Origin: Armatimonadota bacterium
GTDB taxonomy: Bacteria > Armatimonadota > UBA5829 > DTJY01
DNA length: 64,000 nt
Direction of reading: 5' to 3'
Assembly: GCA_025358205.1 (NCBI GenBank)
Contig: JANYKG010000017.1
Span: 2,238 to 66,237 of the forward strand
In this document: positions 848 through 62,732 of the stretch, piece after piece
How positions within the stretch are numbered: position 1 is the stretch's first letter
How the letters are laid out: the number at the start of each line of letters is the position of its first letter
Position numbers and translations under genes: made by a program
The notes under the pieces: generated by a model
The model's input: only the letters and a program-made list of their open reading frames with translations
The model's database searches: none
What the model was told of the DNA's origin: nothing

Positions 848-896
848 CTGACCATCCTTATCCACATGCCTGTTGTGAAGAAAACTTGTACTCTCT

Positions 897-5240: not shown

Positions 5241-5386
5241 CAATGAAGCCCCTTTCAGATCGTGGCACGATGGTCAGCAGAATCCTTCCACATTATTCCA
5301 TCACAAACTTATATCACCAGACTGTGATAGGTGTCAAGGCATTTTGGGTATTTGGGCAGAAAGGTTTGCAGAATCTGAGGTTCTAA

Positions 5387-5524
5387 CTTGGAGTGCGGTC
5401 GCGCAGTCAAAGACGAAGCTGCCGCTTTTCCCTCCGCAGATGCTTGTCTCTGCGGAATCTCTGAAAGCTTCGTATTCAGGATCCAAAGCGAAAGCTCCAT
5501 TGCATTCCGCGTTCGCACTCCAAG
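5387..5524. repeat. Dispersed palindromic MITE/REP-like element, family C (TTGGAGTGCG...CGCACTCCAA)
   Basis: 11-bp perfect terminal IR CTTGGAGTGCG / CGCACTCCAAG; internal CGCTTT...AAAGCG; related copies at 30744-30860 and 60276-60400. Confidence 0.7.
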
Positions 5525-5668
5525 GCAAAGGGGTGTCCGGTTTCCCGAACTCCATTAACATCATACTTATGGCCCAACCTACTGACCTACTTCCCCCAGC
5601 TCTTGAAGAATAATCGTCATTGCCTTATCATTGTTCCCGCGCGGGAATGCCGTGCGGTTGGAGGGGCA

Positions 5669-8600
5669 ATGAAAACCACCAGAATACTCATCCTGTCGTT
5701 ATTCGCCATCATCGCGGCTGCCGGCGCTGAGGTCTGCGCGGCTAGTCTTGCGGCTCAGTTCAAGAACCCGGATGCGGAGTTCCGCCCAGTTCCGTTCTTT
5801 TCGCTGAACGACGACCTGAAGGCGGATGAGCTTGCCTCTCAGATCAAGGATATGCACTCACACGGCTACGGTGGGGCGTTCTTCCATGCGCGAGCTGGTC
5901 TGATCACCCCATACATGGGCGAGGACTGGCTGAACTGCATCGCGCGCGGCGTCAAGGAGTCGAAGGGGGTCGGCAACTACGCCTGGCTCTACGATGAGGA
6001 CCGCTGGCCGAGCGGGTATGCGAGCGGCATGGTTCCCGCGAAGGGCCTGGATTATCGCGCCAAGTCGCTGGGCATAGTTGAGTTCGACGTAAACAATGAT
6101 ACCAAGATCGAACAGAAAGACGGCCAACTGGTCATCAACGGGCTGGACAACGTGCTCGCCTTATTCTCTTGCAGGAAGGAAGGCATGGGGTTCAAGGACA
6201 TCAAGCGCATCACGCTGACTCCCACGATGGGTCTGCCCACGGGCGCGCACATTATGATGTTTCGGAAGATCGTCGCGGCTGACAGCGCCGGGTTCAACGG
6301 ATTCAGCTACGTGGATGTGCTTGAGCCAAAAGTCATCAAGGCGTTCATTGACACTACCTACGAGCCGTACTACAAGAAGCTCGGGGCCGATTTCGGCAAG
6401 GCGATACCAGGGATATTCACGGATGAGCCGAACATCTCGCCGACCGCATGGACCGAAAGCCTGCCGGACAAGTTTCGCGCCAGATACGGATATGATATCC
6501 TCGACTTCCTGCCGGCGCTCTACTACGAAATAGGTGACTGGCAGCGGATACGATACGACTACCGAAGCCTAACGTGCGACATGTACGTGGAGGCCTACTC
6601 CAAGCAGCTCTACGACTGGTGCGAGCAGCATAAGATTCAGTTCACCGGCCACTACCTGGCAGAGGACAGCCTGCACAGCCAACTCCAGAGGGACGGCGCG
6701 GTTATGCCGCACTACGAGTACGAGCAGATGCCGGGCATAGACCATCTCTTCCTTAAGCTTGGCGAGGTTGTGCTGATCAAGCAGGTCAGCAGCGCGGCGA
6801 ACCAGTTGGGGCGCAAGCGGGTACTTTCAGAGACGTACGGCGGCTCCGGCTGGAATATGAGCTTCGCGGACATGCGGTGGATAGCGAACTGGCAACTGGC
6901 GCTAGGCGTGAACTTCATGAACCCGCATCTGTGCCATTACTCGCTTCGGGGAAATCGCAAGCGCGACTGGCCGCCTTCCATCTACTTCCAGCAGCCCTAC
7001 TGGAAATACTATGACAACGTGAACGACTACACCGCGCGCGTTTCCATGATGCTGACCCAGGGCGACTTCATCGCCGATGTGCTGGTCATCCATCCCATAG
7101 CCGGCGCTTGGAGTACGTTCAGTACACTGGACTCATCAAGGGAAGCTACCATCAATCGGCAGTTTGCCACCATCAGCAGCATCCTTCCGACAATCCATCG
7201 GGAGTTCGAGTACGGCGACGAGAAGCTGATGGCGAAATATGCCAAGGTCAGCGGTAAAGACTTCATCGTCGGCAAGATGACGTACAAGACGGTTCTCGTT
7301 CCTTCGACGGTCACGCTTTCCGGCACCACGCTGAAGCTGCTAAAGGAGTTCACGGCGGCGGGCGGCGCTGTCATCGCCGTGCGTCCGACTCCTACGCGAC
7401 TGGACGGCATGGAGTCGCCCGATATCCAGTCGTTCTTCGCAAGCAATACGCCGAATGTGGTCGTCATTGATGATACCAGGAGTGAGATCGAGACGGCGTT
7501 GGACAAGGCATCACCAAAGGGCATCACAGTCAAGGATGCTATCGGCATGGAACAGCCGAATATCGTATGCCATCGCCGCCAGGACGGGAATCGGCAGATC
7601 ATCTTCCTTGCGAATACAAATCGCACCGAGTCTTATCTTGTCACCGTTGGGATCAACACGACGGGCAAGGTCGAGAGCTGGAACCTTGAGACCGGCGCAG
7701 TGGGCAATGCCGCCGCTCGTGCTGAAGGCTCGGGGACCGCCGTTGACCTGCGAATACCCGGCGGGGGATCGAAGCTTCTCGTCGTTGATAGCTCCCAGAA
7801 GCTCGTTCCCGCCAAGATGCCGGACCCAACCATGGCATACTCGGTGGAGTTGTCGAATGCGTGGCAGGTGAAGCGTCACAGCCCGAACGCGCTCACTCTC
7901 GACTACTGCCGGTATCGCATTGGCGAGGGTGAGTGGAAAGGCCCCGTGCCGGTCTATCAGGTGCAGCAGGAGATGGGCGGTCAGCCGGACGGCACGTCGG
8001 TTACTCTGAGTTTCACTTTCAACATGGGCTTCGCTCCGACCAAGGCGCCGCTCTATCTGGTGACGGAGAAGCCTGATATCTACACGGTATTGGTGAACGG
8101 CCAGCCCGTTTCGTCCAAAGACGTCGGTTGGTGGGTGGATAAGTCGTTCCGCAAATTGGACATCGGCAAGGCGGTCCGCACCGGTGACAACACTATCGAG
8201 ATGACCTGCAAGTTCGTCAATCCTACAAAGCCCAGCACAGCTATCTTCATCAAGAATGGTGTCGAGATCGAGAACGTCTACATCGTCGGCGACTTCGCGG
8301 TTGAGGCTGCCTCATCCAAGCCTGACGGTCCGGCGGAAACCACCGTTCTGACTGGGCCGTTCAAGCTCACGCCGGAGAATCCCGTTCCGATCATTGGCGA
8401 CCTGACCACCGCCGGGTATCCGTTCTTCGCGGGCGATATGGAGCTGTATCAGGATGTGAATGTACCCTTCATGCCGGAAGGGCGGATATACCTGGAGTTC
8501 GAGGGCCTGAATGCCATCGTAGCGCGCGTGTATGTGAACGGAAAAGACGCAGGCACTGTGTTCTGGCCGCCGTATCGGACCGAGGTCACGTCGGTTCTGG

Positions 8601-23863: not shown

Positions 23864-25227
23864 CTGTCTTTCCCCTTACTGTTCGCGCGAATTATCTCAA
23901 GCCGTTCCTTGATGATCCTTTCGCGGCCGTTGTCTGTCGGCTCGTAATACGGGGCAGACTTGATTCCGTCCGGCATATACTGTTGTTCTACCCAATGTCC
24001 GGGGTAATCATGCGCATACTTGTAACCTTTTCCGTGTCCAAGCGCTTTCGCGCCCTTATAGCTGCTGTCTCTGAGGTGAATCGGCACCGGTTTCGACTGT
24101 TTCTCGGTAACATCCTTCAGAGCACGTGTTATGCCCACATACGCCGCGTTGCTCTTCGGGGCACATGCAAGATAGACCGCCGCCTGTGCAATCGGTATGC
24201 GTGCTTCCGGCATGCCCACGTACTCCACCGCATGTGCCGCTGCGTTCGCCAAAACCAACGCCATGGGGTCTGCATTTCCTATGTCTTCTGCTGCGCAGAC
24301 AATTATCCGCCGGACGATAAACCTCGCATCCTCTCCCGCGTAGATCATACGCGCAAGCCAGTAGAGCGCCGCATCCGGGTCAGACCCGCGCATGGATTTG
24401 ATAAACGCGGATATCACATCGTAGTGGCTGTCACCGGTCTTGTCGTAGTTGAGCGATCTGTGCTGCAGGGCCTCTTCCGCTATACCAAGGGTGACCTTGC
24501 GCTTGCCTCTCTTGTCGGGCGGCACGGTCAGCGCGGCGATTTCCAGGGCGTTCAGCGCCACTCGGGCGTCACCGTTCGCTATGTTCAGCAGGTGGGCCAT
24601 GGCATCGTCCGTGACCGCGATTTTCCAGTTGCCCAGTCCGCGTTCCTTGTCTTCCACTGCCCGCAGCATTATGGTCTTCAGATCTTCTTCGCCAAGCTGT
24701 TCGAAGCGGAATATGCGCGACCTGGAGATGAGCGGGGAGTTCACTTCAAAGTACGGGTTTTCGGTCGTCGCGCCTATCAGCGTGATCGTTCCGTCTTCAA
24801 CATGGGGAAGAAAGGCGTCCTGCTGTGATTTGTTAAACCGATGAATCTCGTCCACAAAGAGGATTGTCTTGTGTCCGTAGAATTTCTTCTGCTCTTTGGC
24901 CTTCTCTATGATCTTGCGGATATCGGCCACGCCGGATACGACCGCGCTGAAGTTCTCGAAGTTGGACTTGGTAGAGCGGGCTATGGTGGCGGCGAGGCTG
25001 CTTTTGCCGGAACCGGGCGGCCCCCAGAAGATGGCGGACTGTAGTTCGTCCTGTTCAATAGCGCGGCGGAGCAGGGTGCCGGGACCGATGATCTGTTCCT
25101 GGCCTACAAACTCATCTATGGTGCGGGGGCGCATGCGGGCGGCGAGCGGCATTCCTGTTTCGCCGGATGCCTCCGCGGCTTTGTCGAACAGATCTGCGGG
25201 CTGCGAATCCTTCCCAGCCGGTCTCAT
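23860..25227 (-). CDS. rarA: Replication-associated recombination protein A (RarA/MgsA)
   Basis: PLAARMRP, WGPPGSGKS, DEIHRFNKSQQDAFLP, GATTENP and SAFIKSMRGSDPDAA motifs; start placed at ATG 25227. Confidence 0.95.
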   Translation of the reverse strand: MRPAGKDSQPADLFDKAAEASGETGMPLAARMRPRTIDEFVGQEQIIGPGTLLRRAIEQDELQSAIFWGPPGSGKSSLAATIARSTKSNFENFSAVVSGVADIRKIIEKAKEQKKFYGHKTILFVDEIHRFNKSQQDAFLPHVEDGTITLIGATTENPYFEVNSPLISRSRIFRFEQLGEEDLKTIMLRAVEDKERGLGNWKIAVTDDAMAHLLNIANGDARVALNALEIAALTVPPDKRGKRKVTLGIAEEALQHRSLNYDKTGDSHYDVISAFIKSMRGSDPDAALYWLARMIYAGEDARFIVRRIIVCAAEDIGNADPMALVLANAAAHAVEYVGMPEARIPIAQAAVYLACAPKSNAAYVGITRALKDVTEKQSKPVPIHLRDSSYKGAKALGHGKGYKYAHDYPGHWVEQQYMPDGIKSAPYYEPTDNGRERIIKERLEIIRANSKGKDR

Positions 25228-25247
25228 AATGAATGCCCCCGATAGCG

Positions 25248-25322
25248 AAATGGCTGATGGCTCATGGTCAACGAATAGCGGGCAATTGCCCAAACAACAT
25301 CAACCATCAACCACCAGCCATA
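25248..25322. repeat. ORF-less inverted heptamer-arm element (ATGGCT / AGCCAT family)
   Basis: AATGGCT GATGGCT CATGGTC ... GGGCAATTGCCC ... ATCAACC ATCAACC ACCAGCCAT. Confidence 0.7.
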
Positions 25323-25327
25323 AAAAT

Positions 25328-25521
25328 GAGAAACCCCGCGGATGCCGTGTGCCTAGCAAGCTTTTGAACCCGTTCAAAACCACGGGCGGATGTCCTCTCG
25401 TATGCTTTGCGATTCCCCGTGTTGCTGGGGCTGCCACGTCGGCGTACGAATTAGACTCCTTTAATCTTTGAGTGTAGGCTCAAAACTTCTTCAGCGAAGC
25501 ACGTACACAGCAGGGCTTCTC
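25328..25521 (-). ncRNA. ssrS: 6S RNA
   Basis: The minus strand reads GAGAAGCCCTGCTGTGTAC...TTTGAGCCTACAC...GGAGTC...GAGGACATCCGCCCGT...ACGGGTTCAAAA...ACGGCATCCGCGGGGTTTCTC. It has a closing stem and resembles Bacillus-type 6S RNA, and its position between aspS and rarA matches known 6S synteny. Confidence 0.8.
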
Positions 25522-25546
25522 CTGAAACCACTGGCTTGGACTATTC

Positions 25547-25597
25547 AGTCCAAGGCCTTCTGAGCAGCATTCACGCTGTTCGTGAATGCTATGGACT
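25547..25597. repeat. Partial family B repeat in the 6S leader
   Basis: GGCCTTCTGAGCAGCATTCACGCTGTTCGTGAATGCTATGGAC retains the GCCTTCTGAGC linker and the ATTCAC/GTGAAT stem. Confidence 0.65.
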
Positions 25598-25616
25598 TAT
25601 TCCCTTGCATGAGTTC

Positions 25617-25645
25617 ATTCTATCACACCTTACCCTTTTTCGCAA
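25617..25645 (-). promoter_or_regulatory. Putative sigma70 promoter for the 6S RNA precursor
   Basis: TTGCGA-N17-TAGAAT on the minus strand. Confidence 0.55.
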
Positions 25646-25669
25646 TCCAGTAATGTTACCTGTTTCGGT

Positions 25670-26290
25670 TCATTTTCTGTTGAACTCGGTCGCCCGCTGC
25701 ATGGCCTTCTTGAAGCGTAGGAATGCCACAAAATGCGACAGCGCGTTGACCGTCGAAACGATCGCAGTTGTCATCAGTGCGAGTACACCCATCATGGCGA
25801 ACCACTGCTTGCCCAGTCCCAACACTAACGTCGAAAGTCCAATAACCGCCAGCATGACTCCGCCGCACTGAGGCCCGCACGCGCGGATCATCTGCCTGGA
25901 TTCCATGCGGACGAGGGAGTAGTGCGCTTCTTGGAGTGTATCCAGATGCTCTCGCAGGTCGTCAGGGATTTCGGCGCAGTCGAACGCCTGCAGGTAGTAC
26001 ATGGCCATTTGGGTGTTTCGATGGCTCAGTGCGCGCGCGGCGACGGCGAGGACCTTTCGGTATGCGATACGCGCATCATCATCCCACAGACCCGCCTGCA
26101 ACCAGTAAACCGCGGCATTCCGGTGGTCGCCGTGGTCGTAGTAGATTTGTCCCAGCAGCGTCAGCGCCGCCTCGTGGTCGGGCTGCAACTGGATGACCGA
26201 CCTGAGGCGATCTTTGGCCTTGCGAACATCTCCTCGCGCCAGATCGTCAGCCGCCTTCGTGACAACGCGTTCCAGCTTGTCTTGATCCAT
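25670..26290 (-). CDS. TPR-containing membrane protein
   Basis: TPR-like helices (QPDHEAALTLLGQIYYDHGDHRNA) and two C-terminal TM segments. Confidence 0.65.
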   Translation of the reverse strand: MDQDKLERVVTKAADDLARGDVRKAKDRLRSVIQLQPDHEAALTLLGQIYYDHGDHRNAAVYWLQAGLWDDDARIAYRKVLAVAARALSHRNTQMAMYYLQAFDCAEIPDDLREHLDTLQEAHYSLVRMESRQMIRACGPQCGGVMLAVIGLSTLVLGLGKQWFAMMGVLALMTTAIVSTVNALSHFVAFLRFKKAMQRATEFNRK

Positions 26291-26321
26291 AAGGCAAACC
26301 CGCGCACAGCATTCGAGACAT

Positions 26322-26422
26322 TAGATTCTCAGATATCAGATATCAGATTTGGGATCTCAGATTTGAAATCTCAAATTCCGATCCGCGGCCCCCAATCCGA
26401 GATCCGCAATCCGAACTCCGCA
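26322..26422. repeat. Degenerate heptamer tandem repeats
   Basis: AGATATC AGATATC AGATTTG GGATCTC AGATTTG AAATCTC, then GATCCGC ... AATCCGA GATCCGC AATCCGA ACTCCGC. Confidence 0.75.
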
Positions 26423-26426
26423 CTTG

Positions 26427-28214
26427 TCACACCATCCGCACGTCGGAGGCCTTGCCTTCGCGCAGCTTGATGTGCAGTTCGGTGAGCTGCTCTTCAGTTA
26501 CCTGTGACGGCGCCTCGGTCATCGGGTCAACCGCGGTCGCGGTCTTCGGGAACGCGATTACCTCGCGGATGTTGTCGTCATCGGTCAGCAGCATCACAAG
26601 ACGGTCTATTCCGGGAGCGATTCCACCGTGCGGCGGCGCGCCGAACTCAAACGCCTCAAGCAGGTGGCCGAACCGCGCCTGCTGCTCTTCCGGGGAGTGG
26701 GCCAGCAGGTCGAATATCTTCGACTGGATGTCGCGTCTGTGAATCCTGACGCTTCCGCTCGCGCACTCGCTTCCGTTGCAGGCCAGGTCGTAGGCATTCG
26801 AGCGGCATGCGCCCGGGTCGGTCTCCAGCAGCGCGATGTCCTCTTCAAGAGGCATGGTGAACGGGTGATGCTCGGAGTCCCACCGCTTGCCTTCTTCGTC
26901 CCACTTGAACATCGGGAAGTCCACAATCCACGCAAAGTAGAGCATGTTCGGGTCGCGCAGACCGAGCTTGTCGCCGATCTCAAGCCGCAGTCGCGAGAGT
27001 GTGTTCGCCACTGTCTTGGCGTCGTCGGCCACGATCATGACCATGTCGCCAACCTTCGCGCCAGCCTTCTCTACAATCGCGCCAACCACGTCTTCTATGT
27101 ACTTCAGGCTCGGGGACTTGATGCCTTCCTCGGTGATTTGAATGGTCACCAGACCCTTGCCGCCGAAGGTCTTGGACAGCTCGATCAGGTCATCTACCTG
27201 CTTCCGGCTGTAGGACGCCATGCCGGGGCCGAGCAGCGCCTTGATCTCGCCGCCCTTCGCAAGCGTGTTCTTGAATACCTGGAACTCGCTGCCTTCCACC
27301 ACGTCGGCCAGGTTCACCAGTTCGAGGCCGAAGCGCATGTCCGGCTTGTCGGAGCCGAATCGTTCCATTGAGTCTGCATATGTCAGTTTCGGGAACGGCT
27401 TCACGCACTTTTTGGCGCTGAGCTTCTCGACGATCTCGATGAACAACTCCTCAACCAAGTCGAGGATGTCGTCTCGCTTGACGAACGACATCTCAACGTC
27501 GAGCTGTGTGAACTCCGGCTGGCGGTCGGCTCGCGGGTCCTCGTCGCGGAAGCACTTGGCGATCTGGAAATACCGCTCGATGCCTGCCACCATCAGAAGC
27601 TGCTTGAGCTGCTGGGGCGACTGAGGCAGCGCGTAGAAATGGCCGGGGTAAAGTCGGCTCGGCACCAAGTAGTCGCGTGCGCCTTCCGGGGTGCTCTTGA
27701 TCAGGATGGGCGTCTCGACCTCAATGAACTCGCGTGCGTCAAAGAAGTCGCGCATCAGCTTGATCAGCTTGTGCCGAAGTACCAGCTTCTCTTGCATCAC
27801 GGGGCGGCGCAGGTCGAGATACCGATACTTCAAGCGGATAAGCTCGTCCACATCAACCTGGTCGGAGATGGGGAAGGGCGGTGTCTTGGCGGTGTTCAGC
27901 ACGACGATGCTCTCGGTCGCGATCTCGATCTCGCCGGTCTTCAGCTTCGGGTTCTCAGTGCCTTCCGGCCGCTTGCGAACCGTGCCGCGAATACTGAGCA
28001 CGAACTCACTGCGCACGTCTTCGGCAGCCTTGTGGGCTTCCGCTGCCACGGCGGGGTCAACCACGACCTGCACGGTGCCCCAGCGGTCGCGGAGGTCAAT
28101 GAAGATCAAGTTGCCGTGGTCGCGTCTGCGCTGCACCCATCCGTTCAGCGTGATCTCAGTTCCTATTTCCTTAGCGGTTACTTCACCGCACTTATGAGTT
28201 CGTCTCCAGTCCAT
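26427..28214 (-). CDS. aspS: Aspartate--tRNA ligase (probably the non-discriminating Asp/Asn type)
   Basis: [34 protein letters not shown] and [14 protein letters not shown] motifs; His in RDHG is typical of ND-AspRS. Confidence 0.96.
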
Positions 28215-28223
28215 GTCTAGCCC

Positions 28224-28361
28224 CTCTTCCTCGTCCTTGTGCTGTTCCTCTTACTCTTACTCGTACTCGAAAATCTTTATAAGTGATGAGTGATACGTGA
28301 ACTCCTTCGACGGTTCTACCTGACTCCCAGGCCCAGTTCACTCATCACTTATCACTCATCA
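28224..28361. repeat. Hexamer tract plus inverted heptamer-arm element in the hisS-aspS spacer
   Basis: CTCTTC CTCGTC...CTCTTA CTCTTA CTCGTA CTCGAA; then AAGTGATGAGTGATACGTGAAC ... GTTCACTCATCACTTATCACTCATCA. Confidence 0.75.
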
Positions 28362-29621
28362 TGAAAGCGCTTCTGCTATCTTCTCAACTGCCTCACAAAT
28401 CGGAACATCATTCTCTTCCTTCGTACCCATGTTCCGAACCTTTACCAGGCCCTGGTTCAATTCATCCTCGCCGATGATGACAACGAACTTGGCCTGTTCA
28501 CGGTCGGCAGCCTTCATCTGCGATTTCATGCTCTTGCCCGAATAGTCCGTCTCAGCGGCGATTCCGGCCTTGCGCAGATCGGCCAGCAGCTTAATTCCGA
28601 GTTCCCTGGTCGCTTCACCCAGCGTTATTACGAACACCGATGGATGAACATTTATCGGCGGCTCGATGCCCTGTGCTTCCATGATCAGGAGCATCCTCTC
28701 TATGCCGCAGCCGAATCCCACTGCAGGAGTCGGAGGTCCGCCCATCTGGGTAACCAGTCCATCATACCGACCTCCCCCGATGACCGTGCTCTGCGCTCCA
28801 AGGTCGGCGCTCTGGAACTCGAACGCGGTCTTGGTGTAGTAATCCAGTCCGCGCACCAACCGTGGGTCAAGGATATAGGAGATACCCAGGTCGTCCAGAT
28901 AGCGCAGAACCGCCTTCAGGTGATCGCCGCAGTCCTGGCACAGGTGATCCACAATGCTCGGTATGTTGACCGTGAACTCCTTGCAGCCTGGGGCCTTGCA
29001 GTCCAGCATCCTGAGCGGGTTCGTATCGTATCGCACCTGGCAGGTTTCGCATAGCTCGTTCAGGTAGGGCTTTACATCCTGCCTCAGCGCGTCCTTATAC
29101 TGGGGGGCGCACTCCGGGCAGCCGACCGAGTTGATCTTGAGTTCGCAGCCGCCGACCCCAAGCGTGGCGAGAAACTGGCTGCCAAGCGCGATGACCTCGG
29201 CGTCCATTGCCGGGTCCTGGGAGCCGAACGCTTCGATGCCTACCTGGTGATGCTCCCGATATCGCCCGGCCTGCGGTCGCTCGTAGCGGAACACTCCGGT
29301 GATGTAGTAGAATTTGTTGACGGGCTGTTCACCGTGCAGCTTATGCTGGACGTAGGCGCGCACTATTGGCGCGGTTCCTTCGGCGCGCAGAGTCATGCTC
29401 CGCTCGCCCCTATCCTGGAACGTGTACATCTCTTTGCTGACGATGTCCGTATGCTCTCCCACGCTGCGGGTGAAAAGGTCCGTTTCCTCAAAAGTAGGCG
29501 TGCGGAGTTCGTTGTACCCGAAGAGTCGGCAGATATCGCGGAATTTCCCCTCGACGTACTGCCACCGAGGGCTTTCACGGGGCAGGATGTCCTGGGTTCC
29601 CCGCGGTGCGGAATATCGCAT
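28359..29621 (-). CDS. hisS: Histidine--tRNA ligase
   Basis: APRGTQD, KEMYTF, LRAEGTA, FRYERPQAGRYR, LVRGLDYY and GGGRYDGL motifs. Confidence 0.97.
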   Translation of the reverse strand: MRYSAPRGTQDILPRESPRWQYVEGKFRDICRLFGYNELRTPTFEETDLFTRSVGEHTDIVSKEMYTFQDRGERSMTLRAEGTAPIVRAYVQHKLHGEQPVNKFYYITGVFRYERPQAGRYREHHQVGIEAFGSQDPAMDAEVIALGSQFLATLGVGGCELKINSVGCPECAPQYKDALRQDVKPYLNELCETCQVRYDTNPLRMLDCKAPGCKEFTVNIPSIVDHLCQDCGDHLKAVLRYLDDLGISYILDPRLVRGLDYYTKTAFEFQSADLGAQSTVIGGGRYDGLVTQMGGPPTPAVGFGCGIERMLLIMEAQGIEPPINVHPSVFVITLGEATRELGIKLLADLRKAGIAAETDYSGKSMKSQMKAADREQAKFVVIIGEDELNQGLVKVRNMGTKEENDVPICEAVEKIAEALS

Positions 29622-29643
29622 GAATCGGTTTCCTCCAAGCGAT

Positions 29644-29673
29644 ATAGTAGGTCATTCAAGCGTGGATTGTCAA
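29644..29673 (-). promoter_or_regulatory. Putative sigma70 promoter of hisS-aspS
   Basis: TTGACA-N18-TACTAT on the minus strand, about 22 nt upstream of the ATG. Confidence 0.65.
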
Positions 29674-29711
29674 ACTTGGCATGGTTTTCTCAGACAGGCG
29701 AAGGGAAATCT

Positions 29712-29843
29712 AACAGGATAAGCAGGATGTGGAGGATCAGAGTGGGAAGCGAACATCCAACATCCATCCGCCGCGGCGGACGAACTCCCAACATCGAACA
29801 CAGCACCCGAAACCCGGAACCTGGCACCGGGAACCTCGCACCC
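29712..29843. repeat. Stacked nonamer and heptamer tandem repeats
   Basis: AACAGGATA AGCAGGATG TGGAGGATC; CGAACAT CCAACAT..CGAACTC CCAACAT CGAACAC; AGCACCC GAAACCC GGAACCT GGCACCG GGAACCT CGCACCC. Confidence 0.7.
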
Positions 29844-29846
29844 GCC

Positions 29847-30668
29847 CTACGACAACTTGATGCCCGTCCGCTCGAACTCGGTGCGGATGGCTTCTCGGAG
29901 TGCGGAGACAACCGCGTCCTGTCTGCCTGGTCTGACCTCCCCGATCACGCGGATGGTGACGCTGGCCGCGTTCATCGCTGAGATTCCGTCCGCTCTGGGT
30001 GGGCTGACCATGCCTTCGACATCCTTGGAAATGCTGTCCGCCGCGCTGTTGATGGCCGCGCGCACCTTCTCCAGGTCTGAGTCTGCCGCCACGCTTACGT
30101 CCAGCACGGACTGAACTGCCCCTCGGCTGTGGTTGGTTACCATCGTGATGTCGCCGTTTGCGATGATAACCAGCTTGCCAACGTCGTCGCGGAGTTGGGT
30201 CACTCGCATGCCCAGTTCCTCAACCGTTCCCGTAACCGCGCCGATGGTCACATACTCGCCAACCGAATACTGGTGTTCCAGCACGATGAAGAAGCCGGAG
30301 ATGATGTCGCGAACGAGTTTCTGCGCGCCGAACCCAACCGCCAGGCCGACCACGCCGGCGGCCGTCAGCACCGGGGCGGCGTCTATATCAAAGACCCGCA
30401 GGACCATGATGCCTGAGATGAAGATCAGTACGTAGAACACCGTGCTCTTTATCAGACTGCCCAACGTCTTGATCCGCCCTGTAACGGATGCCCCGTCGTC
30501 CTGCCGCTTGATGACCGTGGCCATGATCCTGTTCGTCAGCCGGTTTGCGATGAACCTCACGAGCAGGAAGAAGATGATGATCTTCACAATCGCCCATATC
30601 TTGAAGACGGCGATAGTCAGTCCGCCGATGTGTACACTTCCAAGGTCGTTTAGCCAGTTGATGTTCAT
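29847..30668 (-). CDS. Small-conductance mechanosensitive channel (MscS/YkuT-like)
   Basis: AGVVGLAVGFGAQKLVRDIISGFFIVLEHQYSVGEYV and GTVEELGMRVT; start position uncertain. Confidence 0.9.
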   Translation of the reverse strand: MNINWLNDLGSVHIGGLTIAVFKIWAIVKIIIFFLLVRFIANRLTNRIMATVIKRQDDGASVTGRIKTLGSLIKSTVFYVLIFISGIMVLRVFDIDAAPVLTAAGVVGLAVGFGAQKLVRDIISGFFIVLEHQYSVGEYVTIGAVTGTVEELGMRVTQLRDDVGKLVIIANGDITMVTNHSRGAVQSVLDVSVAADSDLEKVRAAINSAADSISKDVEGMVSPPRADGISAMNAASVTIRVIGEVRPGRQDAVVSALREAIRTEFERTGIKLS

Positions 30669-30743
30669 GATCCAGCCCCTTCGCGCGAGTTGTTTCTCAC
30701 AGGGAAAGTTCGCCATGCAGTCTAGTCCTTCCTGCGAAACCCT

Positions 30744-35712: not shown

Positions 35713-37579
35713 GTATGCCGGGCATGTGCTCGATATCGGAGGTGAAAGTCCTCTACGGTAAAGGGAGTGAGAACCGTTAAGCGGAGGCAAGGGCGTCACC
35801 GTGAGGTGGGGTCTGAAAGAAGCCCGAGCCACAGTCACGACCTGACGAACAGAAACCGGATAGTAGGCCACAGGCGGTGGGTGAGCTGGCATGAGACGGT
35901 GAAACCCTCAACTCCCAAGACCGGCCTGTGGTAAATTCGGCAGGAGCGGGGCGAAAGATCGAGCGCTTATCCCGGGAGATCTGTCACTCTGTCCGCGTGA
36001 GGCGGACTATGCCAGCAGCAATGCAGACAAAAGGAGTGACAGAAGTCAGCAGAGGCCATAGTATCCGCGTGATGCGGAGAAGGGCCGAACACGAAGACAC
36101 AAGGAATCGCCGGAGGAATCGAGGCCGTGGCGGAGCAGAATATCGGACAACCGGCTTTCGACTACGATGAGGCGGGTGAAGCCCGGCCTGGGCGTAGTGA
36201 AGGGCATCAAGCGGCATCGGCGTCCCCCGAGACGAGAACCTTGGCGCAGAGCCTCATGGAGGCAGTAGTAGATGCGCGGAACATGCGCGCAGCCCTGAAA
36301 CGAGTCAGAGAGAACAAGGGAAGCCCAGGAGTAGACGGGGTGACCGTGGATAAGCTCCCGGAGTACCTTATGGAACACTGGCAGAGAATAAGGGCAGAAC
36401 TGCTTGATGGTAAGTACAAACCCCAGCCTGTAAGGCGGGTGGAGATACCGAAGCCGGACGGCGGAGTGCGACAATTGGGCATTCCGACCGTAATGGATAG
36501 GTTGATCCAGCAGGCAGTGCTACAGGTACTTGGGCCACTCTACGCCCCCACCTTCTCGGAATCGAGCTATGGATTCAGACCCGGCAGAAGTGCCCACCAG
36601 GCGGTGAGAGCCGCGAGAGAGCACGTAGCGAGCGGAAAGGAATGGGTAGTAGACCTAGACATCGAGAAGTTCTTCGACCGCGTGAACCACGATATCCTGA
36701 TGGGCCGTTTAGCACGGCGCATAGGGGATAAGCGTGTGCTAAGGCTGATTCGCGCATATCTGAATGCAGGGATCATGGCAGACGGAGTGGTGATAGAGCG
36801 GCACGAAGGCACACCACAGGGAGGGCCACTCTCACCGTTACTTGCCAACATACTCCTTGACGAGTTCGACAAGGAGTTGGAGAAGCGAGGGCACAGGTTC
36901 GTAAGATATGCAGATGATTGCAACATCTACGTAGCCACAGAGCGTGCAGGTGAGAGAGTAATGAAATCGCTCACGCAGTTCCTGGAGAAGAAACTCAGGC
37001 TGAAGGTGAACAAGGAGAAATCCGGGGTAGCCAAGCCGAGGGAGCGGAAGTTTCTGGGATTGCGGATAGTGAAAGGGAAAGAAGCGTTCATAAGCATCGC
37101 GCCCAAATCGCTTGAGCGATTCAAGAAGGCAGTGCGGCGTATCACAAAGCGAAACCGAGGAAGGAGCCTGACCCATGTGATAACGGAACTAAATCGTTAC
37201 ACGACGGGATGGGTGAACTACTTCGGGATTGCAGATGCCAAATCCATCATGCAAAAGCTGGATGGATGGATACGCCGTAGACTGAGGTGCTTGATCTGGA
37301 AGCAGTGGAAAGGATGGCAAACTCGGGCACATAATCTCCTGAAGGCAGGAGTAGGCCCGTGGCTGGCCTATGGCATCGTCTCCGGGAAGCATGGGCCGTG
37401 GAACGTTGCCGGAAGCCCTGCCATGACGAAAGCCATCACGAATGCGTACCTGAAGCAGCAAGGCTACAAGAGTCTCTATGAGCGTTACATGACGCTCGCG
37501 TCTTCGTGAACCGCCGGATGCGGACCCGCATGTCCGGTGGTGTGGGGGGAGGAGCCGGTGACGACTCCTCCTACCCGAT
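35713..37579 (+). mobile_element. Group II intron, class IIC (bacterial class C)
   Basis: 5' GTATGCCGGGCATG...GGTGAAAGTCC...GCAAGGGCGTC...TCTGAAAGAAGC resembles IIC domain I; short DV GAACCGCCGGATGCGGACCCGCATGTCCGGTGGTGT with CGC triad; DVI ends CTACCCGAT; inserted after a terminator. The 5' boundary could be off by 2 nt. Confidence 0.92.
36127..37509 (+). CDS. ltrA: Group II intron reverse transcriptase/maturase (no En domain)
   Basis: NKGSPGVDG, RQLGIPTVMDR, SYGFRPGRS, DIEKFFD, GTPQGGPLSPLLAN, RYADD, GWVNYF (X domain). Confidence 0.95.
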   Translation: MAEQNIGQPAFDYDEAGEARPGRSEGHQAASASPETRTLAQSLMEAVVDARNMRAALKRVRENKGSPGVDGVTVDKLPEYLMEHWQRIRAELLDGKYKPQPVRRVEIPKPDGGVRQLGIPTVMDRLIQQAVLQVLGPLYAPTFSESSYGFRPGRSAHQAVRAAREHVASGKEWVVDLDIEKFFDRVNHDILMGRLARRIGDKRVLRLIRAYLNAGIMADGVVIERHEGTPQGGPLSPLLANILLDEFDKELEKRGHRFVRYADDCNIYVATERAGERVMKSLTQFLEKKLRLKVNKEKSGVAKPRERKFLGLRIVKGKEAFISIAPKSLERFKKAVRRITKRNRGRSLTHVITELNRYTTGWVNYFGIADAKSIMQKLDGWIRRRLRCLIWKQWKGWQTRAHNLLKAGVGPWLAYGIVSGKHGPWNVAGSPAMTKAITNAYLKQQGYKSLYERYMTLASS

Positions 37580-40054: not shown

Positions 40055-40564
40055 TTGGCGGACCAGCACACTACTCTCAGGATACTCGGCGTTGATCCGG
40101 GACTGAACATCAGCGGGTATGGGCTGATAGATGTCCTGAGGGGCCAGCCGTCGCTGATCGAGGCAGGGGTCATCCGCATCCCGGCCAGGCGTCCGCTGGA
40201 GCAGAGGCTGTCCACGCTCTTTCACGGAATCCAGGAGTTGATGCAGGAGTTCAAGCCCGGCGCGCTCGCATTGGAAGAGGTCTACACACACTATGAGCGC
40301 CCCAGGGTGGCGGTGATGATGGGCCATGCGCGCGGCGTTATCTGCCTGGCTGCGGCGGTCAACCAGGTTCCGGTGTTCAGCTATGCTCCCACGCATATCA
40401 AGAGTTCGCTAACCGGCAACGGGCGTGCGAGCAAGGAGCAGGTCAGGCGAATGGTGGAGGTCACCCTGCGCCTGAAGAAGTGCCCGGAACCGTTGGACGT
40501 ATCGGATGCGCTGGCAGCGGCTTTGTGCCACATCTCCAGAACCGGCAGGGAGGGTTTGATTTGA
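40055..40564 (+). CDS. ruvC: Holliday junction resolvase RuvC
   Basis: ILGVDPG, ALEEVY, GHARGV, GNGRASKEQV and DVSDALAAALCH motifs. Confidence 0.95.
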   Translation: MADQHTTLRILGVDPGLNISGYGLIDVLRGQPSLIEAGVIRIPARRPLEQRLSTLFHGIQELMQEFKPGALALEEVYTHYERPRVAVMMGHARGVICLAAAVNQVPVFSYAPTHIKSSLTGNGRASKEQVRRMVEVTLRLKKCPEPLDVSDALAAALCHISRTGREGLI

Positions 40565-41193
40565 TTTCATTTCTGCAGGGCAGTCTAACCATAGCCAGCG
40601 ACTCCGAGGTCATCATCTGGGCGAACGGCATCGGCTATCAGATCATGGTGCCTGCCACAGTCATGCATACCCTCCAGAAAAAGTCCGAGGACGAGTGTCG
40701 CGACGTTCGTCTCATCACGTTTCACTACCTGGAGAACAACCAGTCGCGAATCGTGCCGAGGCTGATTGGGTTCAACAACGAGATCGAGCGCGAGTTCTTC
40801 GAGCTGTTCATTACAGTGGCCGACCTGGGACCGAAGACCGCTGTTCGCGCGCTGTCGAAGGCGTTCCACTCCATCGCCGAGTCAATAGAGCAGGGAAACC
40901 ACAAGGAACTGACCGCGCTGCCCGGCATCGGCGATAAGAAGGCGCGGCAGATAGTGGCCACGCTCCAGGGCAAGGCCGGGAAGTTCGCCATGCTGCAGGA
41001 CGAGGAGATATCATCTTCGCCGCAGCCGAAGGAGGACATCCAGACCGACGCTATCGAAGTATTGCTTCAACTGGGTTACAGGCGCAGCGAGGCGCAGGCG
41101 ATGGTTACCAGCGCCGTGGAGTCCACGTCCCCTAGGCCGAAGACGTCCGAAGAACTGATACAGAAGATATACGAACTGAAGCTTATGAAGTAG
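40561..41193 (+). CDS. ruvA: Holliday junction branch migration protein RuvA
   Basis: (M)ISFLQG, NGIGY, LGPKTA, LPGIGDKKARQI and LLQLGY motifs; TTG start overlapping the ruvC stop. Confidence 0.92.
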   Translation: MISFLQGSLTIASDSEVIIWANGIGYQIMVPATVMHTLQKKSEDECRDVRLITFHYLENNQSRIVPRLIGFNNEIEREFFELFITVADLGPKTAVRALSKAFHSIAESIEQGNHKELTALPGIGDKKARQIVATLQGKAGKFAMLQDEEISSSPQPKEDIQTDAIEVLLQLGYRRSEAQAMVTSAVESTSPRPKTSEELIQKIYELKLMK

Positions 41194-41200
41194 AGCGCAA

Positions 41201-41856
41201 AGAATGGCTAATGGCTGGCCCGCCGAGAGCGGGAATGGACGATGGCTCACGGACAATGGCTGATTGCTGTTGGAGGATGGACGATGGAGAGAATTCGGGA
41301 CGTGGAGCAGATGCCGATTCATCGGTTGTTCGAGGATCTGGCATTCCGAGTAGAGGAATCGACTCGGCGTTTTGGACCGGAGTTCCGGTGGCTCCGTGTT
41401 CAGGTTCTTCGTTCATCCGAATCGGTGTGTGCCAATCTTGCCGAGGGGTTTTACGCCCAGTACAGCACGGAGTATGCTCAATCTTTGCATCGTTGTCGCC
41501 GTGAAGCCCGCGAGTCCATAGCTCATATTCGCTATGCGAAGGGAGTCGGGCAGCTTGACGAGACCTTGAGTGATTCTATCATCTCCTCGTATGTGAGCGC
41601 TCTTGTGCAACTAGCCAGATTGATCTCCGCCATAGAGAAAAAGATAATCGAGAGAGGGAAGGGCAAAGACCTGTCCTGCATAGTCAGAGAAGAACCTTGC
41701 GAATATGAGGTGGATTCGTGTGAGTATGCTTAGCCGACTGTGCCGGAGCGTTCCGGTCATCCATTGCCCATCAGCCATGGATTCCCAGCCATTCCGGCTA
41801 GCCATAAGCCATTTTCCCTAAGCCATTCCGGCTAGCCATTGTCCATTAGCCATTCT
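41201..41856 (+). mobile_element. Candidate element: four-helix-bundle gene enclosed by inverted heptamer-repeat arms
   Basis: Left arm of (A/G)ATGG(CT/AC) units at 41201-41289; right arm of AGCCAT(T/A/G) units at 41759-41856; perfect 14-bp terminal IR AGAATGGCTAATGG / CCATTAGCCATTCT; splits ruvA from ruvB. Mobility is inferred, not shown. Confidence 0.6.
41284..41733 (+). CDS. Four helix bundle protein (23S rRNA-IVP / bAvd-like family)
   Basis: LRVQVLRSSESVCANLAEG...EARES fits the QxxRSxxSxxxNIAEG signature; C-terminal VREExxxY tail; ATG 41284 after GGAGG. Confidence 0.85.
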   Translation: MERIRDVEQMPIHRLFEDLAFRVEESTRRFGPEFRWLRVQVLRSSESVCANLAEGFYAQYSTEYAQSLHRCRREARESIAHIRYAKGVGQLDETLSDSIISSYVSALVQLARLISAIEKKIIERGKGKDLSCIVREEPCEYEVDSCEYA

Positions 41857-41867
41857 CGGAGGTAGCC

Positions 41868-42938
41868 ATGTCCCGAGACAAGATAATATCAGGCGACGAT
41901 GCAGATGAAACCCCGGTTCGTGAGGCCGTCGTGAGTTCGGCGCTGGACCCGGAAGAGGATCGTCAGCAATGGAATCTGCGGCCGAAGACCCTGTCTGAGT
42001 ACATCGGCCAGACCACTGTCGTCGAGAGCCTGAACATCGCCATCACCGCCGCGACCAACAGGCGCGAGCCGTTGGAACACGTCCTCCTGCACGGCTCGCC
42101 CGGCCTCGGCAAAACCACCCTCGCGCATATCATCGCAACCGCCATGGGCGCAAACATCATCGCCACGTCCGGCCCGGCAATCGAGAAACCCAAGGACGTC
42201 ATGGGGATCCTCTCAAGCCTGGAGGTCGGCGATGTGCTCTTCATAGACGAGATTCACCGCCTCTCGCGCGTGGTGGAGGAGTTCCTCTACTCCGCCATGG
42301 AGGATTTCCAGGTGGACTTCGTGCTGGACCGGGGTGCGTATGCAAAGACCATAAAGGTGCCACTCAAGCGGTTCACACTGGTCGGCGCCACCACCCGCGC
42401 GGGGATGCTCTCGGCGCCTCTGCGCGACCGGTTCGGCATATTCACGCACATGGACTACTATGAAACTGAGGAACTCAAGCGCATCGTCCAGCGGTCCGCG
42501 GGCATCCTGAGCGTGAAGATTGACCCCAAGGGAGCTGAGGAGATCGCCCGCCGATCACGAGGCACACCCCGGATAGCCAACCGCCTGCTCCGCCGAGTTA
42601 GGGACTACGCGGAAGTGGAATCGGACGGCACAATCACCCGTGAGCTTGCGGACATCGCGCTGAAGCGTGAGATGGTTGATGAAATGGGGTTGGACAAGCT
42701 CGACCGAGCGTTCCTCCGCACGATCATAGAGTTCTACGACGGCGGACCGGTCGGCATTGAGGCGCTCTCCGCGACCCTGAACGAGGAGACGGATACGCTT
42801 GTGGACATGGTGGAGCCGTACCTGCTGAAGATTGGGTTCCTCAACCGCACGCCCAGCGGCCGCAAAGCCACCCGCACCGCTTGCGAGCACCTGGGCATGA
42901 ACACCGCCAAGCGCAAGCAGGGGCAGCTTCCACTCTAA
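41868..42938 (+). CDS. ruvB: Holliday junction branch migration ATPase RuvB
   Basis: [35 protein letters not shown] and [17 protein letters not shown] motifs. Confidence 0.97.
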
Positions 42939-62644: not shown

Positions 62645-62721
62645 AGAATGGTTGATGGCTAATGGTTGATGGCAGCGCTGCTGCTCTGATCCCCCATGAA
62701 CCATGAACCATGAACCATTCC
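62645..62721. repeat. ORF-less inverted heptamer-arm element (ATGG/CCAT family)
   Basis: AGAATGGTT GATGGCT AATGGTT GATGGCA ... CCATGAA CCATGAA CCATGAA CCATTC; GAATGGTT/AACCATTC IR. Confidence 0.78.
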
Positions 62722-62732
62722 GCGAGGAGCGT

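Follow-up and report, generated by a model that had tools for sequence, protein, structure and literature searches.

The locus examined here raises the question of why ruvA and ruvB, two genes of one operon, are held apart in an Armatimonadota bacterium by a small gene that is itself enclosed in strings of 7-nt repeats, and of what such a unit does. It lies in a 64,000-nt stretch of contig JANYKG010000017.1 (assembly GCA_025358205.1, positions 2,238 to 66,237 of the forward strand), referred to below as the window; G000 is the source genome, other G numbers denote other genomes, L numbers fetched loci, and C numbers contigs of G000. We found that the unit belongs to a widespread type of cassette, in which a PF05635 gene stands between inverted arrays, each typically made of about five 7-nt units, with a heptamer that is specific to the copy. 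The cassette lies in the sense orientation in an intercistronic gap; it is present in this lineage and missing at the same junction in relatives. Genomes with the gene also carry many gene-less arrays that match the resident heptamers, and genomes without it carry essentially none. Of this architecture and of the link between gene and arrays we are highly confident. The parts of the locus are the following:

40055-40564, plus strand: ruvC, the upstream gene of the operon (PF02075, E 3.8e-42)
About 40561-41193, plus strand: ruvA (RuvA_N, HHH_5 and RuvA_C profile matches)
41194-41867, plus strand: inserted unit, the entire ruvA-ruvB spacer of 674 nt, delimited by junction comparison with relatives
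41201-41291, plus strand: left arm, about 10 heptamers (N)ATGGCT / (N)ATGGAC, including one half of the outer 14-nt inverted repeat and the Shine-Dalgarno sequence and ATG of the cargo gene
41272-41276, plus strand: GGAGG Shine-Dalgarno sequence of the cargo gene, within a heptamer unit, 7 nt before the ATG
41284-41733, plus strand: PF05635/TIGR02436 four-helix-bundle gene, intact, 149 aa, ATG at 41284
41757-41857, plus strand: right arm, with AGCCATN / GTCCATN units (about 10) that complement those of the left arm, and with the other half of the outer 14-nt inverted repeat at 41843-41856
41858-41862, plus strand: GGAGG Shine-Dalgarno sequence of ruvB, directly after the right arm
41868-42938, plus strand: ruvB, the downstream gene of the operon (RuvB_N E 3.7e-71, AAA_lid_4, RuvB_C)

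The first-pass annotation, made from the letters alone, had described ruvA and ruvB as split by a repeat-armed unit with about 10 heptamers on each side, a perfect 14-nt inverted repeat (IR) at the outer ends, and a cargo gene that takes its GGAGG and ATG from the repeats. This description was borne out. The outer IR (AGAATGGCTAATGG at 41201-41214, CCATTAGCCATTCT at 41843-41856) was recovered in an inverted-repeat search as pair I6, together with eight more arm-to-arm pairs (I1-I5 and I7-I9) of 13-27 nt and 73-93% complementarity, and the cargo gene's Shine-Dalgarno sequence and its start codon both fall inside left-arm units. The heptamers are visible in the sequence, and Tandem Repeats Finder (TRF) reported a period of 7 or 21 at 41234-41289 and of 7 at 41833-41854; they were the only direct repeats in 41150-41900. 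In the left arm, two units at 41205-41218 are followed by eight contiguous TGGnnnA-type units at 41236-41291, the series being interrupted by a small palindrome, CCCGC..GCGGG, and in the right arm about 10 nnnnCCA units can be made out, the register slipping once. The ruvB ATG (41868) is placed in TAGCCATG. For ruvA, the start is likely a TTG overlapping the ruvC stop, judging from the translation of the open reading frame (ORF), which runs stop to stop from 40480. No terminator-like site was found on the plus strand from ruvA to ruvB, and Rfam matched nothing at the element at E-values up to 1 and no rRNA within the window. Contigs assembled from all four DNA runs break inside the element, near 41314-41331 and 41733-41761, and contain no alternative joints or variants at it. 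A check for RNA sequencing runs that cover the locus found none.

The pairing of the two arms was analyzed in silico. The RNA fold of 41190-41875 had a minimum free energy (MFE) of -268.9 kcal/mol with the arms paired, positions from 41211 onward being joined to those up to 41860, and with the ORF looped out as the flanks of an intervening sequence (IVS) do. Twenty dinucleotide shuffles gave -238.5 +/- 6.3 kcal/mol and none of them folded as well (z -4.85), so that the arms do pair better than shuffled controls. Pairing was also specific to the copy. When, for 33 elements of G000 and its relatives, every upstream arm was locally aligned with every reverse-complemented downstream arm (33 x 33), the left and right arms of the ruv unit scored 33, against a mean of 16.5 and a maximum of 23 with the 32 other right arms (rank 1 of 33), and the own arm was the best partner in 24 of the 33 elements (15 of 20 in the relatives). 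Those not ranked first included C184, beaten by L001/L002, and C27 and L012, beaten by L009, with which a heptamer is shared; the miss of C62 was technical, its arm lying inside its own open frame, and it was recovered in the aligned-arm analysis, leaving L007 and L020 as weak cases. RNA duplexfold over the 230-nt flanks did not separate cognate from non-cognate arms, the energies being dominated by long loops. In the orthologous insertions L014 and L015, whose proteins are 71% identical, the heptamers differ and both arms have changed together, which indicates that some force keeps the arms complementary. Read as letters, the arms resemble a series of conserved ~5-nt cores, each with two free positions, a layout that would suit repeated binding sites.

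The cargo protein gave a single Pfam match, PF05635 (45.4 bits, cut-off 33.8), and also matched TIGR02436 (47 bits, cut-off 24). Its AlphaFold2 model had a predicted local distance difference test score of 86.4, with helices at residues 11-27, 32-56, 61-87 and 93-125 and the last ~25 residues predicted to be disordered. Foldseek aligned the model with 2gsc (TM 0.91-0.93) and 2rld (TM 0.82-0.87), the two solved proteins of the 'S23 ribosomal protein family', each deposited with five chains, and with Avd of the diversity-generating retroelements (DGRs; 4dwl, TM 0.89) at about 9% sequence identity, as well as with the DGR ribonucleoprotein entries 8ube, 8ub7 and 8ub8. Avd is a nucleic-acid-binding pentamer. 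L002, from a relative, matched the PHROG family 'Avd protein of DGR'. Residues Q40, R43, S47 and E77, which belong to the family motifs Q..R...S....N.AEG and E, were invariant in an alignment of 20 sequences that included the window protein. Synonymous sites were saturated between orthologues whose proteins are still 58-73% identical, a pattern consistent with a working protein, the ratio of nonsynonymous to synonymous change (dN/dS) being not computable there and the one close pair differing too little for it. A PADLOC defence search with two proteins gave no match.

The association of this gene with repeat arms extends well beyond the ruv locus. G000 contains 13 PF05635 matches, and by eye all 11 short ones (~120-150 aa) lie between inverted tandem arrays. 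Their units all differ: GGGGTCN, NNNGTCAG (period 8), GTTGAGC, NNGGAGAC (period 8), GGTGGTT, CTAGATG, CGGGTTT, ATCTCAA, CGGATTT, GAAATTC and, in the ruv unit, ATGGCTN. The two others, C93:33177-33389 and C58:7462-7599, are longer related ORFs (open frames of 214-275 aa) that match the first part of the profile only and show no heptamer arms by eye; they may form a separate subfamily. Twenty genes fetched from relatives mostly follow the armed layout. At L019 (G013:C6), a segment made up of the gene's initial codons and a GGTTGTT array occurs two or three times over, in tandem, upstream of the cassette.

Distant genomes gave the same picture. A motif pattern scan of public genomes yielded at least 120 stretches, of which 80 were taken, and 79 of these contained a PF05635 ORF according to a hidden Markov model built in this analysis. 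By their record titles they come from Alpha-, Gamma- and Deltaproteobacteria, Chloroflexota, Acidobacteriota, Bacteroidota, Verrucomicrobiota, Planctomycetota, Elusimicrobiota, Fibrobacter, Clostridia, Omnitrophota, Patescibacteria and others. Among the 69 elements with clean flanks, 63 exceeded the 95th percentile of the controls for inverted match between the flanks, as compared with 12 of the 244 controls, which were size-matched ORFs from the same loci (Mann-Whitney p 3e-32); a direct-orientation arm score showed no difference from these control ORFs. Where arrays had a self-match of at least 80%, the period was 7 for 26 of the 31 that lie upstream and for 27 of the 34 that lie downstream. 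With neighbour orientation assigned by a crude ORF caller, 40 of 67 distant elements were co-directional with both neighbours, 4 were antisense to both and the rest were mixed or unassigned; in G000 the figures were 7 co-directional and 0 antisense among 11.

Some of these cassettes occupy other kinds of site. L010, from a relative, and L125, from an Omnitrophota record, are armed cassettes between tRNA genes. Three of 104 elements have the cassette embedded in a large Eco57I/MmeI-type methyltransferase ORF (L065:1110-1499 in ORF 2-4636, L068:5783-6169 in ORF 4144-7998, and L101:1603-2010 in ORF 3-2657). There the host frame, which is the cassette frame minus 1, stays open through the arms and the gene, while the third frame has 8-13 stops, and L065 and L068, from different phyla, are interrupted at the same point, between the motifs SYYTP and DPAAGSGHFL. 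In-frame palindromic elements are known in Rickettsia genes (Rickettsia palindromic elements, RPE), and the methyltransferase cassettes recall them.

Next, the ruvA-ruvB junction was compared across the class. ruvB was present in all 31 genomes, with ruvA just upstream at 21 of 30 loci, and of the 30 loci only that of G000 was matched by the PF05635 protein of the window in a tblastn search. Among ten genomes of the same family, the gap between the two genes was 2 nt in G002 and 8 nt in G005 and G010; it was about 50 nt in G008, with a short GTCCYAT-type array and no gene, and about 75 nt in G003, with a short hexamer array, a small hairpin and no gene. In G001, G006 and G007 other genes precede ruvB. 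The junction thus has empty alleles, and the unit is specific to its lineage. None of the three outcomes that the first-pass annotation had set as refuting was seen, namely a gene fixed at this site across the clade, other four-helix-bundle genes without arms, and arms that pair no better than shuffled controls; its interpretation is partly supported. Insertions seem to have landed in the ruvA-ruvB spacer more than once. The gene is likewise patchy at the level of whole genomes, 13 of 21 having a match and the copy number varying from 0 to 15 among the 20 relatives. In G009, which has neither a PF05635 gene nor heptamer arrays, the ~980 nt between ruvA and ruvB (L028) consist of about five copies of an unrelated ~190-nt repeat (GTCATCCTGAA...CTCAGAATGACAG).

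Arrays without a gene are numerous in the source genome. At a threshold of at least 17 of 21 matches at lag 7, G000 contained 207 period-7 arrays, and periods 5, 6, 8, 9, 10 and 11 gave 20, 56, 32, 3, 0 and 1; a stricter threshold retained 109 period-7 arrays versus 9 of period 8. The number of contiguous units in the 207 arrays was three in 6, four in 68, five in 97, six in 24 and seven or more in 12, with a mode of five. An inverted partner within 1200 nt was found for 72 arrays, giving 62 hairpins with loops of <30 nt (22), 30-100 nt (22), 100-300 nt (7), 300-700 nt (10, mostly gene cassettes) and >700 nt (1). The long-loop 'hairpins' C122, C173, C91 and C21 were inspected as candidates for other cargo and rejected, each being host genes between two separate arrays. 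Within the window, the gene-less arrays and the RNA gene next to one of them are these:

25248-25321, unstranded: gene-less hairpin of the same heptamer family as the ruv unit (ATGGCTG.. / ..CCAGCCAT)
25329-25519, minus strand: 6S RNA gene (Rfam 64.6 bits, gathering score 46.4)
26327-26422: gene-less arrays TCAGATN and CAATCCG, in a minus-strand operon, between two of its genes
28279-28361: gene-less hairpin ATAAGTG.. / TCACTCA.., one intercistronic gap further along that operon
29752-29844: gene-less arrays AACATCC and ACCCGGAACCTCGC, in the next intercistronic gap
62647-62722: gene-less hairpin, again with heptamers of the ruv unit's family (AATGGTTGATGGCT x2 / CCATGAA x3.6), with a co-directional gene pair on its two sides

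ORF-less copies of the ruv unit had been suspected at 25248 and 62645, and the hairpins at 25248-25321 and 62647-62722, with arms of ATGGCTN/ATGGTTN heptamers, correspond to them. The former directly follows the 3' end of the 6S RNA gene, and the next minus-strand gene starts shortly after it. In the five-gene minus-strand operon at 25200-30720, every intercistronic gap has arrays or hairpins (25248, 26327, 28279 and 29752), and their heptamer families differ.

The heptamers of these arrays are tied to those of the resident genes. In 81 of the 198 gene-less arrays of G000, the consensus heptamer was exactly present in the arms of the 11 genes of the same genome, whereas 200 draws of 11 arms from distant phyla gave a mean of 10.2 and a maximum of 27; with one mismatch allowed, the count was 191 against a null mean of 151 and was uninformative. 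Co-occurrence was assessed in 40-400 kb sampled from each of 15 relatives, 16 genomes with G000. The five genomes without a PF05635 match (G005, G009, G010, G018 and G020) had one period-7/8 array in 840 kb, and G015, with a weak long-form match only, had none in 100 kb. Gene-bearing genomes had 20-150 arrays per Mb (Spearman 0.89 over the 16 genomes), some carrier contigs having been chosen for holding the gene and G000, G006, G013 and G023 having been sampled without that bias. In two complete genomes, the gene-bearing and evenly sampled G006 had 46 arrays in 400 kb and the gene-less G009 had 0 in 400 kb. Thus, the earlier proposal of one family of which the ruv unit is the gene-bearing member and the ORF-less hairpins are copies stood in so far as arrays with the same heptamers are scattered through the genome and are nearly absent from gene-less relatives.

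The link was also observed outside this class. In the 69 cross-phylum loci, the sequence outside the cassettes held 30 period-7 arrays in 391 kb (77 per Mb), and periods 5, 8 and 9 gave 11, 1 and 2. L109, a Pseudoxanthomonas record (genome G155), has a PF05635 gene with GGGAATN arms, and in that genome (GGGAATC)3 with up to three mismatches matched 57 + 57 times, mostly as +/- pairs 50-130 nt apart, the reversed control matching 0 + 0. Among 31 genomes of the xanthomonad family, at least 20 matches were found in 13 of 17 gene-bearing genomes versus 1 of 14 gene-less ones (Fisher p 1.8e-4), and GGGAATC-type arrays track the PF05635 gene across the family. In the four carriers with 0-6 matches, the genes are flanked by GGAGTGA, GAGTGGC-like, AAATCAA, GGTAAAT and GGGAACN units; of six many-match carriers, four (G157, G165, G176 and G178) have GGGAATC/GGGATTC-type arms, G166 has GGGGATA and G160 GGGACCC. 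G155, G157, G165 and G176 (L109, L306, L301 and L304) have the cassette at the same site, between a gene ending ...EFDQPLFVI and a gene starting MLDKVVIANRGEIALRI, which we take to be accB-like and accC-like, respectively. In the order around the genome of L119, the GTTGCTYN pattern, of the Geobacter metallireducens type, gave 5 single matches in 121 genomes, a sample that evidently leaves that species outside; in G096, of the same order, a reversed GTTGCTYN-type control matched 13 + 27, which suggests that this genome holds a large family of TCGTTG-type octamer arrays. A reverse-transcriptase partner was considered by analogy with Avd and telomerase. RVT_1 was found in 4 of 21 relatives and was missing from the array-rich G001, G004 and G006, and a reverse transcriptase as the general mechanism was rejected, as it does not co-occur with the arrays.

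Several known systems resemble the cassette in part. The 23S rRNA IVSs with an S23p/PF05635 ORF (Leptospira, Coxiella and others) carry a gene of the same family that is looped out by complementary flanks. According to the available part of one report, tandem GACAGAT heptamers precede the S23p ORF in Coxiella, the Shine-Dalgarno sequence lies inside the stem and the first of the repeats is where RNase III cuts (PMC4990558); the ruv unit likewise has tandem heptamers directly upstream of the ORF and a Shine-Dalgarno sequence within the predicted stem, but it stands between two protein genes of an operon, not in rRNA. In the same part of that source the IVS is treated as a peculiarity of rRNA and is not connected with genome-wide arrays (PMC4990558). 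The fold is that of Avd in DGRs, yet the ruv unit is not accompanied by a neighbouring reverse transcriptase or by template and variable repeats, and the only reverse transcriptase in the window is the maturase ORF of a group II intron (36127-37509), 4 kb away. Miniature inverted-repeat transposable elements and insertion sequences share with it a 14-nt perfect terminal IR, insertion polymorphism and gene-less relatives; unlike them, it shows no transposase and no target duplication, its arms are internally repetitive, and the gene-less loops are unshared. In the system formed by repetitive extragenic palindromes (REPs), their doublets (REPINs) and REP-associated tyrosine transposases (RAYTs), the gene is flanked by its own inverted repeat and many gene-less intergenic copies exist, each gene type has its own repeat type, and the repeats are missing where the gene is missing. 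Here too the gene has its own inverted repeat and many gene-less copies, a likeness replicated in G155. It differs in that the gene encodes a small four-helix bundle where RAYT genes encode an HUH/Y1 transposase, and in that the repeats are tandem 7-mers of about five units instead of 20-40-nt palindromes, with many arrays solo.

On balance we lean toward an explanation in which the ruv unit is an IVS-like cassette accompanied by cognate gene-less arrays in a REP/RAYT-like layout, although we hold it, with its mechanism included, at little better than even. Since no terminator-like site precedes ruvB, the cassette probably becomes part of the ruv operon transcript through read-through. There the arms could pair into a long imperfect stem that would bury the Shine-Dalgarno sequence and ATG of the cargo, the ruvB Shine-Dalgarno sequence being just outside. 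The geometry of this predicted stem would be that of the 23S rRNA IVSs with the same protein, which are cut by RNase III at the stem. We propose that the protein binds a cognate five-unit array, one heptamer per subunit of a pentamer, because arrays most often have five units and the crystals 2gsc and 2rld contain five chains; judged by these analogues, a pentameric array binder is the likely role of the protein. It would act on its own arms, as autoregulation, and in trans on gene-less arrays. Mobility, RNA processing and binding are inferred from genomic evidence. The sense orientation, the sites in tRNA spacers and 23S rRNA, the missing terminator and the Coxiella precedent favour an RNA-level, IVS-like life.

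Several observations weigh against this explanation. In register, the two arms agree at only ~79% of positions (1153 of 1459 aligned), 156 of the mismatches being transversions, and a wobble test counted 69 G:U-type and 81 A:C-type mismatches (p 0.37), a balance by which a sense-strand RNA stem is not singled out. The earlier proposal of a long stem therefore stands for pairing in silico, but not for a stem specifically favoured in the sense RNA. Similarity between proteins and similarity between arms were weakly correlated (Spearman 0.19, reversed-arm control 0.10, Mantel p 0.001), and proteins that are 71-73% identical (C21/C62, L014/L015) have quite different heptamers, which together argue against a simple recognition code. 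The five-unit mode was obtained with a detector blind to arrays shorter than about four units, and 135 of the 207 arrays appear solo, with no inverted partner within 1200 nt at the threshold used, so a hairpin cannot be the complete explanation. The gene-less AGGTGKT hairpins have no homologous loops, and arrays of other families often lie within those loops; their loops being unrelated, hairpins of one arm family are not copies of one entire element, and copy-and-paste of whole elements is not evident. The first-pass annotation had expected the junction in relatives to expose empty alleles or a target duplication: the former exist (2-75 nt), but comparison of the flanks at 41194 and 41867 with empty junctions gave no target duplication in one filled/empty pair. 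No transposase or recombinase domain was found at the unit, where PF05635 is the only Pfam match. Exceptions to the co-occurrence also exist, as G161 has 60 pattern matches without a gene match and G018 has its one array without a gene. Moreover, the compared genomes are kin, so that the correlation statistics and p-values overstate independence.

Some of these points would be expected if the cassette were a mobile element at the DNA level, its arrays serving as subterminal binding sites, the bundle protein as a binder of DNA ends, and movement occurring by some recombination or repair route. The balanced wobble count is what pairing or recognition in DNA predicts, and the presence or absence of the unit at the ruvA-ruvB junction, the patchy copy number in relatives (0-15 per genome) and the perfect 14-nt terminal IR are all in line with it. 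The same heptamer families occur with similar proteins in distant phyla (AGCTGTN in L128, L062, L076, L070 and L122), and polarity is fixed: of 62 hairpins, 44 have the G-rich arm 5' whichever strand is read, versus 14 with the C-rich arm first. Such a G-rich-first order was also considered as a clue to the transcribed strand and was rejected, as an inverted repeat reads alike from both strands. Still, the fold is none of the catalytic folds known from transposition, no target duplication accompanied the filled/empty pair, gene-less hairpins have loops that are not related to one another, the arrays do not co-occur with a reverse transcriptase (RVT_1 in 4 of 21 relatives, and missing from the array-rich G001, G004 and G006), and a sense-orientation bias of 47 versus 4 is unexpected for a purely DNA-level unit. 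We consider this alternative unlikely.

A second alternative is ordinary host regulation, in which the protein would bind operon transcripts or DNA at the arrays, control their processing, stability or translation and regulate itself, gains and losses being ordinary gene turnover with nothing selfish about them. The arrays are indeed in intercistronic gaps, including every gap of the minus-strand operon of the window and the position 3' of its 6S RNA gene, and the gene is in the sense orientation. Orthologous cassettes are kept across genera (G000 C184 = L002, G000 C27 = L009), the accB-accC site is occupied in four xanthomonad genomes, and amino-acid identity of 58-73% with saturated synonymous sites is consistent with purifying selection. 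However, entire sister genera keep the same operons without the gene and the arrays, which means that the system is dispensable. Heptamers turn over fast even between orthologous sites, in-frame cassettes inside methyltransferase genes are more parasite-like, and homologous cassettes in 23S rRNA are excised IVSs, as far as the available part of the Coxiella report goes (PMC4990558). We regard regulation by the host as an improbable account of the whole. Last, that the arrays arise by replication slippage at intergenic hairpins where the PF05635 gene merely lands or persists, with no role in their origin or function, is very improbable: slippage has been held responsible for heptanucleotide over-representation in some bacteria (cited in the available parts of PMC4679880 and PMC4692102), unit number differs between close relatives (~5 in L008, ~11 in L011), and short gene-less arrays occur at the ruvA-ruvB site in G008 and G003, yet it would leave unexplained the complementarity of the arms during unit change, the heptamers common to gene-less arrays and resident genes, the array loss without the gene in two unrelated clades, and a peak at five units where a steady decay with length would be expected.

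As to whether the unit is undescribed, as the first-pass annotation had it, a full-text literature search, whose coverage stops short of subscription journals and supplementary gene tables, found no paper joining PF05635 to arrays. Cyanobacterial short tandemly repeated repetitive sequences (STRRs) are further heptamer repeats. In the available parts of the respective papers, GGGAATC in Xanthomonas and GGGGA(T/C)T in Nostoc are reported as enigmatic enriched heptamers (PMC4692102), paired hepta- and octanucleotides in Geobacter metallireducens as 'global regulator sites' (PMC2700814), and TAACTGA repeats from Beggiatoaceae, cyanobacteria and Bacteroidetes (PMC4679880). As described there, these are intergenic tandem 7-8-mers of 3-6 units, often in inverted pairs at variable distance and between operon genes, and the explanations proposed in those parts are G-quadruplexes, IHF/HU sites or translational control. 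The terms 'S23' and 'four-helix' are not in the main text of the Geobacter paper (PMC2700814), 'S23' was not found in the Xanthomonas paper (PMC4692102), and 'S23 ribosomal protein' and 'four helix bundle protein' were not found in the Beggiatoa paper (PMC4679880). The claim of novelty thus holds for the link between PF05635 and the arrays, which was not found in print, but not for its pieces, which have been reported separately for Coxiella, Geobacter metallireducens and Xanthomonas in the available parts of those sources.

Elsewhere in the window, a group II intron (35795-37579, plus strand) was identified from Rfam matches to D1-D4 and domain V/VI, its maturase ORF having RVT_1 and GIIM domains. 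It lies upstream of exbB-like and tonB-like genes and of ruvC.

PF05635/TIGR02436 is a very large family annotated as 'hypothetical' despite crystal structures, and we know of no function for it outside DGR Avd; heptamer repeats are decades-old puzzles in several groups of bacteria. The two are tied here by statistics in two unrelated clades and a cross-phylum sample, and both problems gain a testable hypothesis, that of a pentamer binding five heptamers with the arrays as processing sites. Annotation pipelines could flag cassettes and arrays, so that interrupted ruvA-ruvB and accB-accC pairs and 'inserted' methyltransferase genes are interpreted correctly. If the REP/RAYT-like interpretation is right, a second case would be known in which a gene has cognate non-coding repeats all over the genome, with a mechanism different from the first, and the 23S rRNA intervening sequence would be one landing site of a general cassette. 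More tentatively, and with doubts outweighing our confidence, PF05635 and the heptamer arrays may form one hitherto unrecognised, phylum-spanning system, in which a ring of five bundles would read five units, one per subunit, paralogues would each be tuned to a heptamer of their own, the arrays would need the protein in order to arise, spread or persist, and gene-bearing cassettes in operon spacers, between tRNA genes, in 23S rRNA and in methyltransferase genes would be the master copies. If true, such a system would explain both the orphan S23p/IVS family and the repeats of Xanthomonas, Nostoc/Calothrix (STRR), Beggiatoaceae and Geobacter.

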